Source: Eledone cirrhosa (Eukaryota). From it: 64,000 bases of DNA. Position 1 is the first letter of the stretch. Each line of letters opens with the position of its first letter. Below, piece after piece: positions 45,654 through 53,188 of the stretch. Under the pieces are notes generated by a model that ran no database searches, had not been told where the DNA came from, and saw only the letters and a program-made list of their open reading frames with translations. Location: contig OZ024743.1 of NCBI GenBank assembly GCA_964016885.1, positions 155,496,001-155,560,000 on the forward strand, in the 5' to 3' direction. The translations under genes and the position numbers were made by a program.

Positions 45654-45764
45654 ATAGGAACGAGTAGGACTCTGACGGCTGAGCTCAAGCCGTTTCGACG
45701 GCTAATTCTGGACGGAATTAGCCGTCGAAACGGCTTGAGCTCAGCCGTCGGGATCCTACTCGTT

Positions 45765-45769
<5 letters not shown>
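45654..45769. repeat. Near-perfect 55-bp-arm palindrome made of two hammerhead 3' halves around a shared stem II
   Basis: gacggctaattc-tggacg-gaattagccgtc-GAAA-cggct..agccg-TC on both strands. Confidence 0.85.
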
Positions 45770-45848
<79 letters not shown>

Positions 45849-46412
45849 CGCATATGCTAATATATAAAAAAACTATAAAATATATTAAAAATATACATAT
45901 AACAACACATAGAGATAAACAGCGGGCTGTACAAGTAAGGTTGCGCCCAGTAATATGTCTACAGAGATGTCGTTACGTTGCGAACATGCATCAATCCACA
46001 TATGGTATCTTCCCTCAAAGCCACTAATAGGCGTTCATGGTATTACAGTAAATAGTAAGTGCAGACCGTACATAGAAAATGCTTGCAGAATATATATAAA
46101 AAAAGAAGGAACGTGTATGTATATGAGATACTACACAAGAGAAGTATGAGATACTGGCCGTCTCGGGTTTTGCCCACGCGTTATTTCGTCCCCTATGTTG
46201 CCGCTATCTCTATGTCTACCGTGGGCGTCGAGAGAGAGAGACGTTTGATCAGGAACGCTGTCAAGATGAAACTAGCTGTAAATAAAGGTTAAAAAGTAAA
46301 TTGATGAGGTGTATGTGCGAATATTATAGATGGTATTCAAATATTAGAGGTCAGCAATATAGGAACTGGGTATATTATTTTATACTGTGTTTAAATGGAT
46401 TAAGAAGTGTAA

Positions 46413-47639
46413 AAACAATCTACAGACGGAAAACTTATAACTCAACATATAAACTCTGAAATTAAGAATTTAGCTGAAATTATACCAACAGTTATCAAAG
46501 ATACAAGAGAAAGCCTACCACAACCCCCTTGGATGTCAGAAATAAACGAAAGAAATTTGGAAAACAAAACACATCGAATAAGAAAAGAAATGTGGAAGAC
46601 ATGGAAAAAATTCCTTAACATAAGAAAACAAAATTTCTGGAAAGCATACAGATGCGAAAAATATGTCGAAACACATTCGAAATGGCTCTCTCTAACGGCA
46701 CCCATACTCCCTCGTAAATACCTAATTACAGAAATTGCAGGAGAACCAGAAGAAGAAACAAAACTCCGATGGGAACTTACATTGACAAAATTCAGGACCG
46801 ACATCTCCATTTCTGAATGTAAACAATCCCGCTACAAAGCCAAATATGAAGCTATTGATGACCAAATTGAAGTTGAAATTTCAAAGCTAACGACTGGTAT
46901 TATAGCTGAAAAACTACGAGAACTATGGATCGGAGATATCTCAAAAGAAGAAAACAAATCAAGAAAGGTATGGCAGCAGAAACAATTATTTCTCGATGAA
47001 TATGCTGCAAATTACGGTAAAGACTCTGGAACCCTGAGAAAAAGCATTAAAAGTGGACAATCTCATCAACACAACATACGCCAGAACACGTGCCAACACA
47101 AACACTCACCTTACCTTGAATCAAAGAAGAACTACGGTAATAACTCTTCGCTTTTTCTACAAAAACACCCTATCGCACACAACATGAACAAAAAGCACAA
47201 ACACGATAGGTATTCCTTTGACCAGACCATGAGAAGTAGTAAAACCAGGAGATCATTCTCAAGATCTCAACAGAGACTACCAACAAGGAATGTGGAAACA
47301 AAACGTAGAATAACCAGATCACTCTCAAGATCTCAACAGAGATTGCCCACAAGAAACTGGACGAAAAAACGATCTAAACCTGAAAGCAAACCTAGGTCAT
47401 TTTCCCAGATTGTTAAAAATAATGCTAACAGGAAGAAAAATAATATACAGAATACCAAAAATAGGACAAAATACATAACGAAACCAAATATAATATCACG
47501 ACCAAAAGTTCATCAAGCGAACACCAACAGGAATAAAAATCCTGAACAAAGAAAAATTCATTTTTTAACGTCAGGACAACAAAAACCGGAAAAAGAAAAA
47601 CTCCAGGAGGAAACATACCCAAAACAGCTGTACACGTAG
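46413..47639 (+). CDS. PLE ORF1: helical/coiled-coil-like N-half and basic R/S/K-rich C-half (probably 5'-truncated; first ATG at 46533)
   Basis: Frame open from 46413 to TAG at 47639; internal repeat SRSQQRLPTRN x2; overlaps the ORF2 frame by 94 nt. Confidence 0.7.
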   Translation, partial: KQSTDGKLITQHINSEIKNLAEIIPTVIKDTRESLPQPPWMSEINERNLENKTHRIRKEMWKTWKKFLNIRKQNFWKAYRCEKYVETHSKWLSLTAPILPRKYLITEIAGEPEEETKLRWELTLTKFRTDISISECKQSRYKAKYEAIDDQIEVEISKLTTGIIAEKLRELWIGDISKEENKSRKVWQQKQLFLDEYAANYGKDSGTLRKSIKSGQSHQHNIRQNTCQHKHSPYLESKKNYGNNSSLFLQKHPIAHNMNKKHKHDRYSFDQTMRSSKTRRSFSRSQQRLPTRNVETKRRITRSLSRSQQRLPTRNWTKKRSKPESKPRSFSQIVKNNANRKKNNIQNTKNRTKYITKPNIISRPKVHQANTNRNKNPEQRKIHFLTSGQQKPEKEKLQEETYPKQLYT

Positions 47640-49873
47640 ATCCTAAAATAATTAATTTATCTAAAAGAGATCTTGACAATGGTGAAATGCAAATTCTGTC
47701 AAAAGGACTGAAATTCACACCGACTCCAACAGTCAACCACCAAGAACTGAAGGAGGATACCCAAGAATTCTGTCGAAAATTACGTCTTGTAGAATTCTTC
47801 GCTGATAAAAATAATGAGAGTGATGAATCACTAGTAAAGAATAAATCAAATTTCACTCCGCCAAAAGGAAGAAATATCTATTTCGACCAATACATTGACA
47901 TCCTGTATAAATTTCCTCTTAGACATAATACTAATGTTAGGCCAAACATTAACAAATCAGAAATGTCTGCACTTAAACGTATACAAAATGATAAAACAAT
48001 AATAATTAAACAAGCAGATAAAGGGGGTGCAGTTGTTATAATGGATACTGAATACTACAAGGATTTGGTTGAGGAACAACTGAAAGACACAACATTCTAT
48101 CATGAAATACCGTCAAATATAGACCACAACATCATGAAGAAGATCAACAACCTGGCTTCAAAATACCACAACTCATTTACTGATAAGGAAAGAGACTACA
48201 TCACCAATTTTGAGCCGAAACCCAGCAACCTGTATGGCCTACCGAAAGTTCACAAGTCAAAAGAAATACAACTGGCAGTAAGAGAACAAAACAGTGAGTA
48301 CATTAAATTATTACACCCAAAAGACTTAAAACTTAGACCTATTATAGCTGGTCCAACATGCCCCACTCACCGTCTAAGCAATTTTGTTGACATTATTTTG
48401 AAACCACTATGTATTCACATACCCAGTTTCATCCGGGATGATATCGACTTCCTGTCCCATCTTCCCAAAACCACGGAAACGAATTCACTTCTACTCAGAT
48501 TTGATGTGGTAAGCCTTTACACCAACATTACACATGATTTAGGAATAAAGGCGGTTAAATACTGGGTGGAAAAACATAGAGAAGTGATTCCCATTAGATT
48601 CACAGCGCCATTTATATTAGACGCAGTTAAACTTATTCTGGAAAACAACACTTTCTTCTTCAATGGAAAGAATTACATCCAAATTAGAGGCACAGCGATG
48701 GGAACGAAGTTTGCTCCCGTTTACGCGAACTCTGTAATGGGATACTTAGAACAACAACTCTACCAAGAAATAGAGGAAAAATATAGTACTGACTTTAGAA
48801 AGTACATTGAAAAATCTTGGAAGAGATACTTTGACGACTGTTTCATCATCTGGACAGAATCTTTAGATACTCTGGATGAGTTCAATATCCTCCTGAATAA
48901 CCTACACCCATCTCTCTAATTCACAAAAGAGATGAGTAGGACCAAATTACCATTCCTAGATATAATGATAATCAAAAACGACACCACCATTACCACGGAT
49001 ATATATTATAAACACACAGACACCCATCAATATCTGAATTTTAAGTCGTGCCATCCACCTCATACAAAACGCAACATCCCATACTGCCTAGCCAGAAGAA
49101 TTTGTACCATTGTAGAAGATACGAATACCAGGTACAAACGCCTAACAGAACTAAGAGAATTTTTGCTCAAACAAAAATACCCATCTCTACTTATAGAAAA
49201 TGGCATACAGCGGGCTATAAAAATACCTATACAACAACTTAGAACAACCCAAAGAAGAAGAAACCAAGAACTGGTCATACCATTTATAATGACACACAAC
49301 CCATGTCACCAGAATATCTTCAACACTGCCAAAGCAAACCTACTGATCATTGCTCAAATTAATGAATTAAAAGGCTTAATCACAGATCGATCTTTGACTC
49401 TTAGTAAAAGACAGCCAAAAAATTTGAAGCAATTGCTAACAAACGCAAAGTTTGACCTTAACAACAAAGACCAATCATTCACTGTATCTAAATGCAATGA
49501 TAATCGATGCGGCACATGTCAATCCATACACGCCGGTCAATATATGAAAACAAAAACTGGAAAAATATTCACAAATGCAAATATGAACTGCAAAAGCAGA
49601 AATCTAATTTACTGCATTAAATGCCCGAATTGTGAAGAACTATACGTCGGTCAAACTGGAAATGCACTATCGGAACGTGCACGGGTACACCGTCAACAAA
49701 TCAGAGACCCAAATGTCCGTCAGATACCCCTAAGCGGCCACCTGGCAACATGTGGTCAGGGAATATTTATAATATTCCCATTCTACAAATTACACAGCCC
49801 AAATGAAATCAAGAGAAAAATCAAAGAAAAGAATTTTATTGATAAATTCAAACCCAAGCTAAATGAACAATAA
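47567..49873 (+). CDS. PLE ORF2: RT + GIY-YIG, with one in-frame TAA at 48917-48919
   Basis: IINLS..KGLKFTPTP, ADKGG, FDVVSLYTNI, GTAMG, RYFDD, LPFLD, CNDNRCGTC, NLIYCIKC..YVGQT; ORFs 47687 and 48932 are in the same frame. Confidence 0.9.
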
Positions 49874-50040
49874 TAACGCCTAGGGGTATTACTTCTACTA
49901 CCACTATGACCACGACCACTAACAACAACAACAACAACAATAATAATAATAATAAAAGTGATGTTGATGGTGGTGATTAATAGAAAATGCTATTTTCATC
50001 ATTTCAAAAAAGCAAAACAATTGATACGTTGGATATGACT

Positions 50041-50215
50041 ATTGGTCGTTAGCATGCTCAACCAGCCGTGACGCTTAAACCAATCAGCTGTAGTAATTCA
50101 GTGAAACTACACACTGATTGGTCGTAATACAGTTTACAGGGCTTTGCATTCTGGAGCCACTTTTCTCTGTATAAAATGTATAAAAGGTAGGAAATTTACC
50201 CATCTCATTACAGTT
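50041..50215 (+). promoter_or_regulatory. Putative Pol II promoter in the PLE 3' pseudo-LTR
   Basis: CCAAT/ATTGG boxes at 50041, 50080 and 50117; TATAAAA at 50170 and 50179; Inr-like TCATT/CAGTT at 50205-50215. Confidence 0.6.
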
Positions 50216-50248
50216 GAAAATTGCAAACTCGACTGTCACCACATATCA

Positions 50249-50287
50249 TGAACCTGAAGATTGCGAAAGCATGAAAGTACTTGTTCA
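50249..50287 (+). ncRNA. Minimal type I hammerhead, family H
   Basis: tgaac-CTGAAGA-ttgc gaaa gcat-GAAA-gtac-TT-gttca. Confidence 0.85.
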
Positions 50288-50421
50288 ATTAACACTTAGA
50301 ATTTAATATTCTATCATACTATTTCATTATAATACCATTATATATATTTTAAAGGATTGTAAATAAAACGAGTAAATCAGACAAAGTTGGAATTCCTCTT
50401 ATTAATATATATATATATATA

Positions 50422-50496
<75 letters not shown>

Positions 50497-50503
<7 letters not shown>

Positions 50504-50992: not shown

Positions 50993-53188
50993 AGAGTATT
51001 GAAGTTTACTTGAAGCATTTTTCGGGTTTCTTGGAGAGGTATCTTCGCAGGGAGAGGCCCGAGTGGGCCAGGTGGATGTCAAGGCCCTCCCTCCGTATAG
51101 CCTTGCGGATGGCGTTGGTGGTTTTCTCGCCCAGGTGTGGCATTTTAAGGAAGCACTTGCCTTGGGTGCTTCTCTGTCTCTTGCGTCTGGTGTCTCCTAT
51201 TCTGTCTGTGATCGAGGTAGGTACCCGTTCGTCTCCAGCACCTCGAGGAATCGCTTGGTATGAGTGACACCACTCGCAGGATCGCTGCATCTGTTTTTGA
51301 TTCGCGCGATCTCGTTCGTGATGTATCCTCTTTTGGCACTGTTAGGGGGCGGACTTGTAGTGAACAAATAGGTCCCTGCAGGCTGCCTTTCGGTAGAAGT
51401 TGCAGTGGATCCTTCCCTGTTCCGTGATGTTGATTCGGAAGTCGAGGAGGGCAAGTGACCCGTCTTCGTTGGGGTGTTCAACACTGAAGTCCATGTTCTC
51501 GTCCGTGTTGTTGAACGTCTCATAGATTCTGTTCGCCGTGTCTTGGGAAGATGTGAGGATGAGGATATCGTCCACGTACCTTGAGAAAAAGGCTACTGCG
51601 TTGGGGTGGCAGGCGTTGAGTGCCTTGCGTTCGAGGTTGTCCATGTAAGAGATCGCTAGCACACCTGATAGGCTTGATCCCATGGGCAATCCCGAGGTTT
51701 GTTGGTATATTTGGTCAAGGAATCCGAAGTAGGAGTTGTCGACAACGATGGATAGGAGTTGGTGGATGTCAGGGGTGGTGAGCCCAAAGCAGTGTAGGTC
51801 GGTGGATAGGACGCTTTCCATTAGTATATTGACGGCCGGGAGTGCCGGGACCGAGGTGTAGAGAGCGACTACATCAAGGCTGAAGACATATCTGTTATTC
51901 CTTCTGGTGTCGGGATCCATTTGATGCAGGCGCTTCAACACCTCCTCGGAGCTGTTAACGTGTCCCGGCAAGGTGTCTAAGATGGGTTTGAGTATTCTGG
52001 CTAGGAGCCATGAAATTTTGTAGAGCGGCCCCTCCACGTTCGATACGATGCGCCTGATTTTCAGGTCGGGTCCCTGTTTGTGTGTTTTCACGAGGTGGTA
52101 GAAGGCGGATAGTCTGCTGTTCCTCGTGAGGAGGTTGTATCGCAGCTTCTGCGGGAGCTTCCGCCGGTCGCAGATGTTGGTCCAGGCGGAGTTGATGAGT
52201 TCTTCTATCTGCGCGGGAGTGGTTCCCGTGACATTGGAGTAGAGGTTGTCATCGTCAAGGTGTTGTAGGGCCAGGGTGTTGTAGGCCTCTCTGCTGATGA
52301 CGCAGAATTCTTTTCCCTTGTCGGAGAGGAGATAGATGAGGTTCTTCGATTTTAGGTTGGAGAGAGTGGTGAGTTGAGATTTGGTGAGGTTATGTGTTGT
52401 GCGTGTGTGTGTGTGTTTGTGAAGTATATCCGAGATGGAGTGTTTTAGTCTGATGAGTTTAGTGTCGAGTTCATGGTTAGTGGGTGGGGGGTAGAGTGGG
52501 TTGTCGGGGTAGTAAGTGGGGGAACTTGGGGTGGGTTGCGTCGGCGCTGTTATTTTCTGTGGCGCTGTTGATGGCGGTCACCCATTTAAGTTGGTAAGCA
52601 GCTCGACAAAAGTTGGCCTCGATGTTGAGTTTGAGTCTGTCGTAGAGACGTTGTGTGACGATGAACTTAGGTCCGAGCTGTAGGAGTTTCAGCTCGTCGC
52701 TTGTGAGAGTGCCGGTTAGGTCGGTGACCAGGTGCGTCGCATCGTTGAGGTATGGCTCGGTGTTGCTGGTTGCGGCGGTGGCGGTTGTTAAGTTGTTGTT
52801 TTCCACGTGGTTCTGGTCCGTCTGTTCGTTGGTGTCGATGTTCTCGTTGTGGCGTTTCGATAAGATCCACTCATATTTTTGCTTGAGCTGTTTTTTCTCG
52901 TATTGTACTCTGGATTGGTAGCACTGGTCGATTGCTTTAGTGATTTTCAGGAGCAAGTCTCCGTGTGCTATTGGCAGTCGATGTGTCCGCTCTGAGAGTG
53001 TCCGCTTATGAACGTGTAATTGGCGGTTGAGATGTCTCAGGATCTGTTTAATACACGTGCGATGTATGCGGTTAGTGGTGTTTTTGGAAGGCTGGTGTAC
53101 GTAGGCTTACTGGTAAGTGGATGTTCTTGATGGTGTTGGGGATGACATCGTTTTTTAGGCAGCGTTTCAGGAAAATAATTTGGAAAAT
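50992..53188 (-). mobile_element. GC-rich PLE with frameshifted RT ORF and no GIY-YIG visible
   Basis: FLKRCLKNDVIP, LGPKF, SDKG, LDVVALYTSV, GLPMGS, RYVDD; ends KKPEKCFK* just before (TA)n. Confidence 0.85.

Follow-up and report, generated by a model that had tools for sequence, protein, structure and literature searches.

A putative −1 ribosomal frameshift between ORF1 and the reverse transcriptase-endonuclease of a Neptune-like Penelope element in Eledone cirrhosa, and a possible role of the ORF1 stop codon

A stretch of 64,000 nucleotides of the Eledone cirrhosa genome (contig OZ024743.1 of assembly GCA_964016885.1, positions 155,496,001 to 155,560,000 of the forward strand; hereafter the window, in whose numbering all positions are given) contains a Neptune-like, endonuclease-bearing (EN+) Penelope-like element (PLE). 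Its reverse transcriptase (RT) and GIY-YIG endonuclease share a frame that overlaps an upstream open reading frame (ORF), ORF1, in the −1 phase. Judged from the sequence, the RT-EN protein is very probably made by programmed −1 ribosomal frameshifting at a U-UUU-UUA heptamer within the overlap. This two-ORF interpretation was first put forward in an initial annotation of the window and is supported by the layout, by the phase of the heptamer and by its conservation across families. We also propose, tentatively, that a broad clade of animal PLEs uses a natural −1 frameshift signal that is free of RNA structure and in which the ORF1 stop codon, held 10, about 21 or about 31 codons behind U-UUU-UUA, would serve as a roadblock.

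Two overlapping frames around a slippery heptamer

The following features make up the junction between the two frames:
46413..47639, + strand: ORF1, 408 aa between stops; intact copies encode 449 aa, of which residues 42-449 are present here
47543..47545, + strand: TGA that bounds the RT frame 5' of the overlap, found in 30/30 loci
47546..49873, + strand: RT-linker-GIY-YIG frame, −1 relative to ORF1 (47546-48919, then 48920-49873 past a single TAA)
47561..47567, + strand: slippery heptamer U-UUU-UUA, in phase in ORF1 and conserved in other families
47637..47639, + strand: ORF1 stop TAG, 23 codons 3' of the Leu codon; it may act as a roadblock that causes two ribosomes to queue, a role suggested by the spacing distribution

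The coordinates originally given for ORF1 and for its overlap with the RT frame, 94 nt directly 3' of the TGA, hold. Read in ORF1, T-TTT-TTA is phased X-XXY-YYZ and encodes His-Phe-Leu, while a −1 slip gives Phe-Phe-Asn and enters the RT frame. An in-phase X-XXY-YYZ heptamer inside a −1 overlap, as expected for programmed −1 frameshifting, is thus present. Further on, the RT frame passes through the landmarks IINLS (47648), GLKF (47705) and YxDD (48827), and its first ATG (47687) follows IINLS, as had been pointed out before. An intact copy has no other T6N run within its 3,580 coding bases, and the heptamer is kept across families, which argues for more than a chance occurrence. In the frameshift reading, most ribosomes would terminate 23 codons past the heptamer and release the 449-aa ORF1 protein, and a minority would slip by −1 and produce an ORF1-RT-EN fusion of about 1,194 aa.

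A junction search of the 3.0-Gb genome, in which 40 of 1,643 candidates were scored, yielded 30 loci, i.e., the window copy and 29 others, and all of these 29 top loci carry the same junction with no indel. The junction 26-mer has 159 exact matches in the genome, and no shorter or longer T run was found in the subfamily sharing it. With a relaxed junction pattern, 321 matches were obtained; among the 100 of these that were listed, 97 keep six bases (a substitution being present in four), while the run is five T long in one and seven T long in two. Among 21 further, mostly older loci (20 from more diverged matches and one from another search), 19 span the junction, with T6 in 15, a substitution in three, five T in one and seven T in none. 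A family consensus with an extra T, which had been raised as an objection to the frameshift, is therefore not what the genome contains. In principle, the split could also be an inactivating indel in a master copy that is spread by a single-ORF partner, and the two seven-T copies with their fused frames would fit such a scenario. However, these two copies are older (92-96% identity to the young copies), most of their ORF1 is missing and their RT frames are disrupted, and the searches described below gave no fused homologue. This explanation is contradicted by the recurrence of the same split and phase in all related families, and we regard it as barely conceivable.

Conservation of the junction in diverged families

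In-phase T6A is present in five more families of the same genome (20/24, 3/7, 4/8 and 3/4 rows, the others being decayed or truncated, and four copies of the sixth family). ORF1 identity to the window element is 27-31% in the four same-genome families compared, and altogether the heptamer is found in phase in families whose ORF1s share 20-31% identity over long alignments. Six of 129 loci from outside this genome have both an ORF1 match and an RT start. All six show the −1 offset, five with T6A and one with T6G, and the RT frame is broken further on in two. In an RT tree calculated without reference Neptune RTs, the U6 families form one branch (SH-aLRT 97; 13 of 14 rows, L119 lying outside). 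Lack of conservation of the heptamer had been named at the outset among the findings that would speak against frameshifting; instead, it is retained in phase across diverged families.

The proteins tell the same story. A similarity search with ORF1 gave 398 representatives at E ≤ 0.001. From 152 homologues collected, the 90 with a length of 300-540 aa were used to count Phe-Leu (FL) and 62 were left out. In 72 of the 90, FL lies 9-45 aa from the end of a tail that is not conserved otherwise; 2,000 shuffles gave a mean of 5.8 and a maximum of 15, the reversed pair LF is found in 5/90, and an upstream window gave 7. K, E, Q, M and W are absent from the position preceding FL (0/72; background 20%, p 1e-7), as they must be if the codon at that position supplies the first T of the heptamer. 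It counts against frameshifting that FL is missing in 18 of the 90 homologues; three of these have FF and several look broken. Four of the 62 left-out homologues have FL less than 9 aa from the end, and all four are fragments of 111-274 aa with seemingly incomplete tails. The nearest named homologues are bivalve proteins, and a search of viral contigs returned no relatives. By length, no ORF1-RT fusion occurs among the 150 of the 398 representatives that were listed (76-706 aa). The best 120 RT-EN homologues comprise 517-817 aa, with lengths up to 1,348 aa searched, and a search for longer, fused ORF1 forms, which is weak evidence, likewise gave none.

RT-EN could alternatively arise if ribosomes reinitiated, or initiated internally, at an ATG further downstream, e.g., that at 47687. 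This codon lies just 5' of GLKF in the window element, and a third Neptune-like lineage described below seemingly couples its ORFs by stop/start overlap. Still, the Met is not conserved. The first RT-frame Met, at positions 12 to 177, is located 3' of the INLS start in 11 of 12 families, and these would lose INLS and, in several cases, GLKF as well; the one family in which Met precedes INLS weighs on the other side. The heptamer would have no explanation, and initiation at an internal ATG appears very improbable.

The most serious rival of frameshifting is splicing. In this view, the T run would serve as the pyrimidine tract of a 3' splice site, RNA spliced there would connect the RT frame to an exon located further upstream, and ORF1 would come from RNA left unspliced. 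Introns are known in PLEs (PMC3846280, available in part; PMC4209133). In 9/12 families, T6 is directly followed by AG; in 11/12, the window element included, the first AG has RT phase 2; and 47/72 homologues have G, E or D, i.e., a G-starting codon, after FL. These points weigh against frameshifting, but splicing needs no fixed ORF1 phase, whereas FL is in phase in the 72 homologues counted above and the −1 offset is found in every DNA family. Moreover, the run is exactly six T in 12/12 families, with a purine before it in 11, and three of the 12, the window element among them, have no AG beside it. Splicing also leaves the stop spacing unexplained, and a sister lineage has G-GGU-UUU/C and a hairpin at the equivalent place. 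Taken together, splicing is improbable. No joint spanning the ORF1-RT junction was seen in the contigs from three runs of unknown kind, which are uninformative on expression or splicing.

Spacing of the ORF1 stop and a possible stimulus for slippage

A weak hairpin (ccgga..tccagg) noted downstream of the heptamer in the initial annotation proved no more stable than shuffled sequence. The 57 nt 3' of the heptamer fold at −3.4 kcal/mol (z +0.3) and form no stable stem-loop of the kind that canonical −1 sites have 5-9 nt downstream, which by itself weighs against frameshifting. Four sister families tested gave 0.0 to −8.7 kcal/mol (z −0.6 to +0.6), and a crude search detected no H-type pseudoknot in the window element or in these four.

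In none of the 72 homologues does the stop follow the Leu codon by fewer than nine codons, while stop rates of 0.04-0.07 (0.07 measured) would lead one to expect 26-36 such cases, and in 21 of the 72 it follows after exactly 10 codons. Weaker peaks lie at 20-23 and 30-33 codons, and these distances correspond to those between collided ribosomes. The ten residues concerned have no common sequence, and the 10-codon spacing is kept across unalignable tails and long branches. The six families of the window genome have spacings of 10, 10, 19, 20, 23 and 31 codons, 23 being that of the window element. An artefact of contig ends (k=31 assembly) was considered as the source of the 10-codon peak and ruled out, as contigs of 0.6-5 Mb and DNA in which the stop is real show this spacing too. 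Folding is weaker in the four DNA families with spacing 10 than in the nine others (p 0.006, a post hoc comparison that includes related pairs).

Stimulation by a stop at such a distance has a precedent only in engineered E. coli reporters. In these, according to the available part of PMC6815119, a stop 8-10 codons past a slippery heptamer leads to about two-fold more −1 slips in the trailing ribosome without any structure. For yeast, a collision gap of 10-11 codons has been reported, with longer disomes at the terminating ribosome (10.1101/2023.02.01.526718, available in part), and the SARS-CoV-2 frameshift is described in the accessible text of PMC8168617 as sensitive to the position of the stop, via a different route. 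By the same principle, a ribosome terminating at the ORF1 stop would act as a roadblock, and the queued ribosomes would hold the trailing one on the slippery site. The PLE junction resembles the E. coli reporters in placing the heptamer one ribosome length upstream of a stop with no RNA structure. Those constructs are artificial and bacterial and peak at 9 codons (PMC6815119, same part), whereas the PLE signal would be natural, eukaryotic and conserved and would peak at 10. Our literature search found no description of a natural collision-spaced frameshift signal.

Several observations weigh against a queue. Spacings of 11-18 codons occur in 22 of the 72 homologues. The 10-codon state is clustered on the tree and compatible with one origin. 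The enrichment at 20-23 or 30-33 codons, which hold 21 of the 40 spacings of at least 14 (10.7 expected), comes from windows picked post hoc and ignores kinship. In L157, the stop follows one codon after the site and there is a strong hairpin (z −3.7); L154 likewise has a hairpin (z −2.6). Mammalian profiling indicates that collisions rarely arise from termination pausing (PMC13341110, in the part available). Finally, with its spacing of 23 codons the window element itself would require a queue of two ribosomes. We therefore separate the two claims: that the terminating ribosome triggers the slip in the window element is doubtful, while a roadblock function of the stop in the clade as a whole is a somewhat better founded but still tentative proposal.

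The frameshift may equally be real and work without a queue. U6A can slip without structure. Slippage would then rest on a low intrinsic rate at U6A, on weak or long-range RNA structure or on a bound protein, with the spacing inherited or otherwise constrained. The hairpins of L157 and L154, the many spacings off the 10-codon grid and the clustering of the 10-codon label on the tree agree with this explanation, which we hold to be quite possible, if short of probable. It leaves unexplained why the spacing has a lower limit of 9-10 codons, why a value of exactly 10 is kept and why the spacing-10 DNA families have weaker folds.

A dead copy of a young Neptune-like family

The element as a whole is composed of the following further features:
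46411..50410, + strand: 5'-truncated copy of a young Neptune-like EN+ PLE, about 99.5% identical to other genomic copies
48917..48919, + strand: nonsense codon (TAA) private to the window copy; a sense codon in 27/27 other loci covering the site, which 2/29 do not cover
49493..49519, + strand: CX4CxxC zinc-finger-like motif opening a long linker before the endonuclease (Neptune type), by-eye comparison with Fig. S2 of PMC8557442 (available in part)
49604..49864, + strand: GIY-YIG endonuclease domain with CCHH residues, Pfam PF01541, E 1.2e-6
50249..50287, + strand: motif of a minimal hammerhead ribozyme within the 3' repeat region (pseudo-LTR, pseudo-long terminal repeat); core read by eye, helices I and II fold
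50405..50500, unstranded: (TA)n microsatellite at the 3' junction; other copies likewise finish in (TA)n

Comparison with genomic copies places the beginning of homology at 46411 and its end at the (TA)n tract, and all 29 other loci are about 99.5% identical to the window copy. Intact copies, with a 449-aa ORF1 starting with ATG and a 775-codon open RT-EN frame, were present in 6/6 fetched regions, where they sit in partial tandems and inversions, as is typical for Penelope elements. In the window copy, ORF1 is missing its first 41 codons, the ATG included. Together with the private nonsense codon, this 5' truncation renders it dead. The earlier description of a copy that is not pristine and has one nonsense codon was thus right about the codon and understated the damage. 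The element is best seen as a defunct member of a Neptune-like, endonuclease-bearing Penelope family that has expanded recently and numbers hundreds of nearly identical copies.

Pfam recognizes RVT_1 (E 5e-6, 26.8 bits, below the cut-off of 29.6) and the GIY-YIG domain listed above (above cut-off), and the PLE-type RT motifs GxKF, DKG and YxDD are present. In intact copies, the C-terminal GIY-YIG domain and its CCHH residues share a single open frame with RT. The CX4CxxC motif is separated by 23 aa from the next Cys. According to the available text of PMC8557442, the CX2-5CxxC linker is long in Neptune, short in Nematis and absent in Penelope/Poseidon, and the Neptune clade as described there shares with the present family the GxKF/DKG/YxDD RT, the long CX2-5CxxC linker, GIY-YIG with CCHH, pseudo-LTR tandems, a minimal hammerhead and (TA)n ends. 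By eye, RT3 and RT4 look like those of DreriNep1 and XtropNep4. Pseudo-LTR partial tandems and inverted 5' pieces are seen in L031-L036. The hammerhead motif fits the minimal hammerhead ribozyme of PMC4209133; an Rfam scan did not detect it and returned chance-level matches only. On the basis of RT motifs, the long zinc-finger linker, the hammerhead and the (TA)n ends, we class the element as a Neptune-like EN+ PLE, with the short RT blocks compared by eye.

Canonical EN+ PLEs are described as single-ORF elements (PMC8557442 and PMC6431247, each available in part, the latter contrasting them with two-ORF EN− elements). All intact copies and related families have two frames, and the element is therefore classed as a Neptune-like variant and not as a canonical EN+ PLE. 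What distinguishes it from Neptune is the separate 449-aa ORF1 overlapping RT-EN in the −1 frame. Two features of the EN− Athena and Terminons, the missing endonuclease and the attachment to telomeres, are not shared: GIY-YIG resides in the RT ORF, and copies occupy internal positions of many contigs, with (TA)n and not telomeric repeats at their ends.

Two neighbors of the element were noted in the window. A near-perfect 110-nt hairpin (−99 kcal/mol; 45656-45765), resembling a miniature inverted-repeat transposable element, lies beside a (TA)n tract. On the minus strand, 51342-52577 holds a second, unrelated Penelope-type RT fragment (RVT_1 E 2e-11) with at most 27% identity to any RT of the tree.

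The ORF1 protein

Three segments can be distinguished in ORF1:
46413..47009, + strand: predicted all-helical domain (long N-terminal helix and helical bundle), AlphaFold2 model of an intact copy; conserved across a large unnamed protein family
47025..47560, + strand: basic, predicted disordered tail with 45 K/R vs 6 D/E in 179 aa
47239-47370, + strand: 66-nt tandem duplication in the tail region

The AlphaFold2 model, calculated with a 93-row alignment, consists of a 62-residue helix and a helical bundle (residues 11-240, mean pLDDT 88) ahead of the basic disordered tail. This agrees with the helical, basic ORF1 (isoelectric point 10.1) that had been predicted. No Pfam family is common to more than one of the 93 ORF1 members, and Foldseek gave no match to the model at E ≤ 0.001. 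The best VIA match (Z 9.0, root-mean-square deviation 6.4, 124 aligned residues) is to generic helical bundles, at background level for helical models, and ESM Atlas yielded only scores of 0.75-0.76. Gag and the ORF1 proteins of long interspersed nuclear elements (LINEs) are models for an RNA-packaging role. By analogy with these, and given its composition, ORF1 is likely an RNA-packaging subunit.

Relation to known frameshift systems and to other lineages

In HIV-1 gag-pol, −1 frameshifting takes place at U-UUU-UUA, the structural ORF comes first and the enzyme ORF follows in the −1 frame. The PLE has the same heptamer and the same order of structural and enzyme frames. Unlike HIV-1, it has no stable stem-loop 3' of the site, its ORF1 is without Gag fold or zinc knuckle, and it is not a long terminal repeat element.

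Among PLEs, the Fig. 1 legend of PMC8557442 (available in part) mentions for animal elements that a frameshift with a pseudoknot may set ORF1 apart, the clade being unnamed in the text, and this makes the novelty of the two-ORF layout weaker than the initial annotation implied. As in the elements of that legend, a predicted helical and perhaps coiled-coil-like ORF1 precedes RT in the present one, with a putative frameshift between the two. We take the elements of the legend to be Athena or Terminons, an unconfirmed assignment; in contrast to these, the window element encodes a GIY-YIG of its own, its copies are scattered over many contigs, and a crude search showed no pseudoknot. A killifish Neptune with two non-overlapping ORFs (PMC12602865) and esterases in fish and mollusc Neptune-like elements (PMC5408684) have been described, and in the available parts of these papers no frameshift is proposed. 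Nothing on frameshifts appears in the accessible parts of PMC3846280, PMC6515669, PMC5718144 and 10.64898/2026.07.22.740005, and Penelope is unmentioned in the 300,000 characters available of PMC5009743. Our literature search, whose reach did not extend to key Arkhipova papers and Repbase, found no description of a slippery site in an EN+ PLE. The two-ORF layout may already be known to specialists.

Two other lineages came to our attention. A second EN+ Neptune-like lineage (L210, L213-L216, L218-L220, L225 and L226, also L104 and L217) has an unrelated ORF1 of about 360-430 aa that overlaps RT in the −1 frame. Here, G-GGU-UUU/C is in phase, the stop follows 0-2 codons later in most members, and several have a small hairpin about 6 nt downstream. 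Homology of this ORF1 to that of the window element was considered and rejected (no similarity, probability 0.1%). In a third lineage (L169, L173, L177, L179, L181, L184 and L185), upstream ORFs of up to about 715 aa end with a stop that overlaps or abuts the RT ATG, an arrangement that suggests synthesis of RT by termination-reinitiation; four of the upstream ORFs were scanned and gave no Pfam match.

Further observations concern sister families and the origin of records. In one sister family (L233, L237, L245, L252 and L256), a variable-length poly-C tract lies within the overlap and shifts the frame in several copies. L235 and L238, also of a sister family, are 5'-truncated copies that start at most about 10 nt 3' of the heptamer and are joined to (TA)n. 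Elements of the kind described here also occur in records labelled as bacterial genomes or symbionts (L099, L104, L119, P0158, P0162, P0220 and P0247); these labels probably reflect host contamination.

Implications

A gag-pol-like frameshift in EN+ PLEs would mean that the start of RT has been called wrongly in such elements. The clade comprises hundreds of diverged ORF1 families, and their ORF1s would have been overlooked or annotated as unknown host or bacterial genes. If the ORF1 stop indeed serves as a roadblock, the ratio of enzyme to ORF1 would climb with ribosome load, and ribosome collisions, usually viewed as a quality-control alarm, would here have become a programmed signal for recoding. 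A conserved, natural −1 frameshift driven by collisions would then be without an earlier example in the literature searched, and the dozens of natural spacing variants make the queue idea directly testable.

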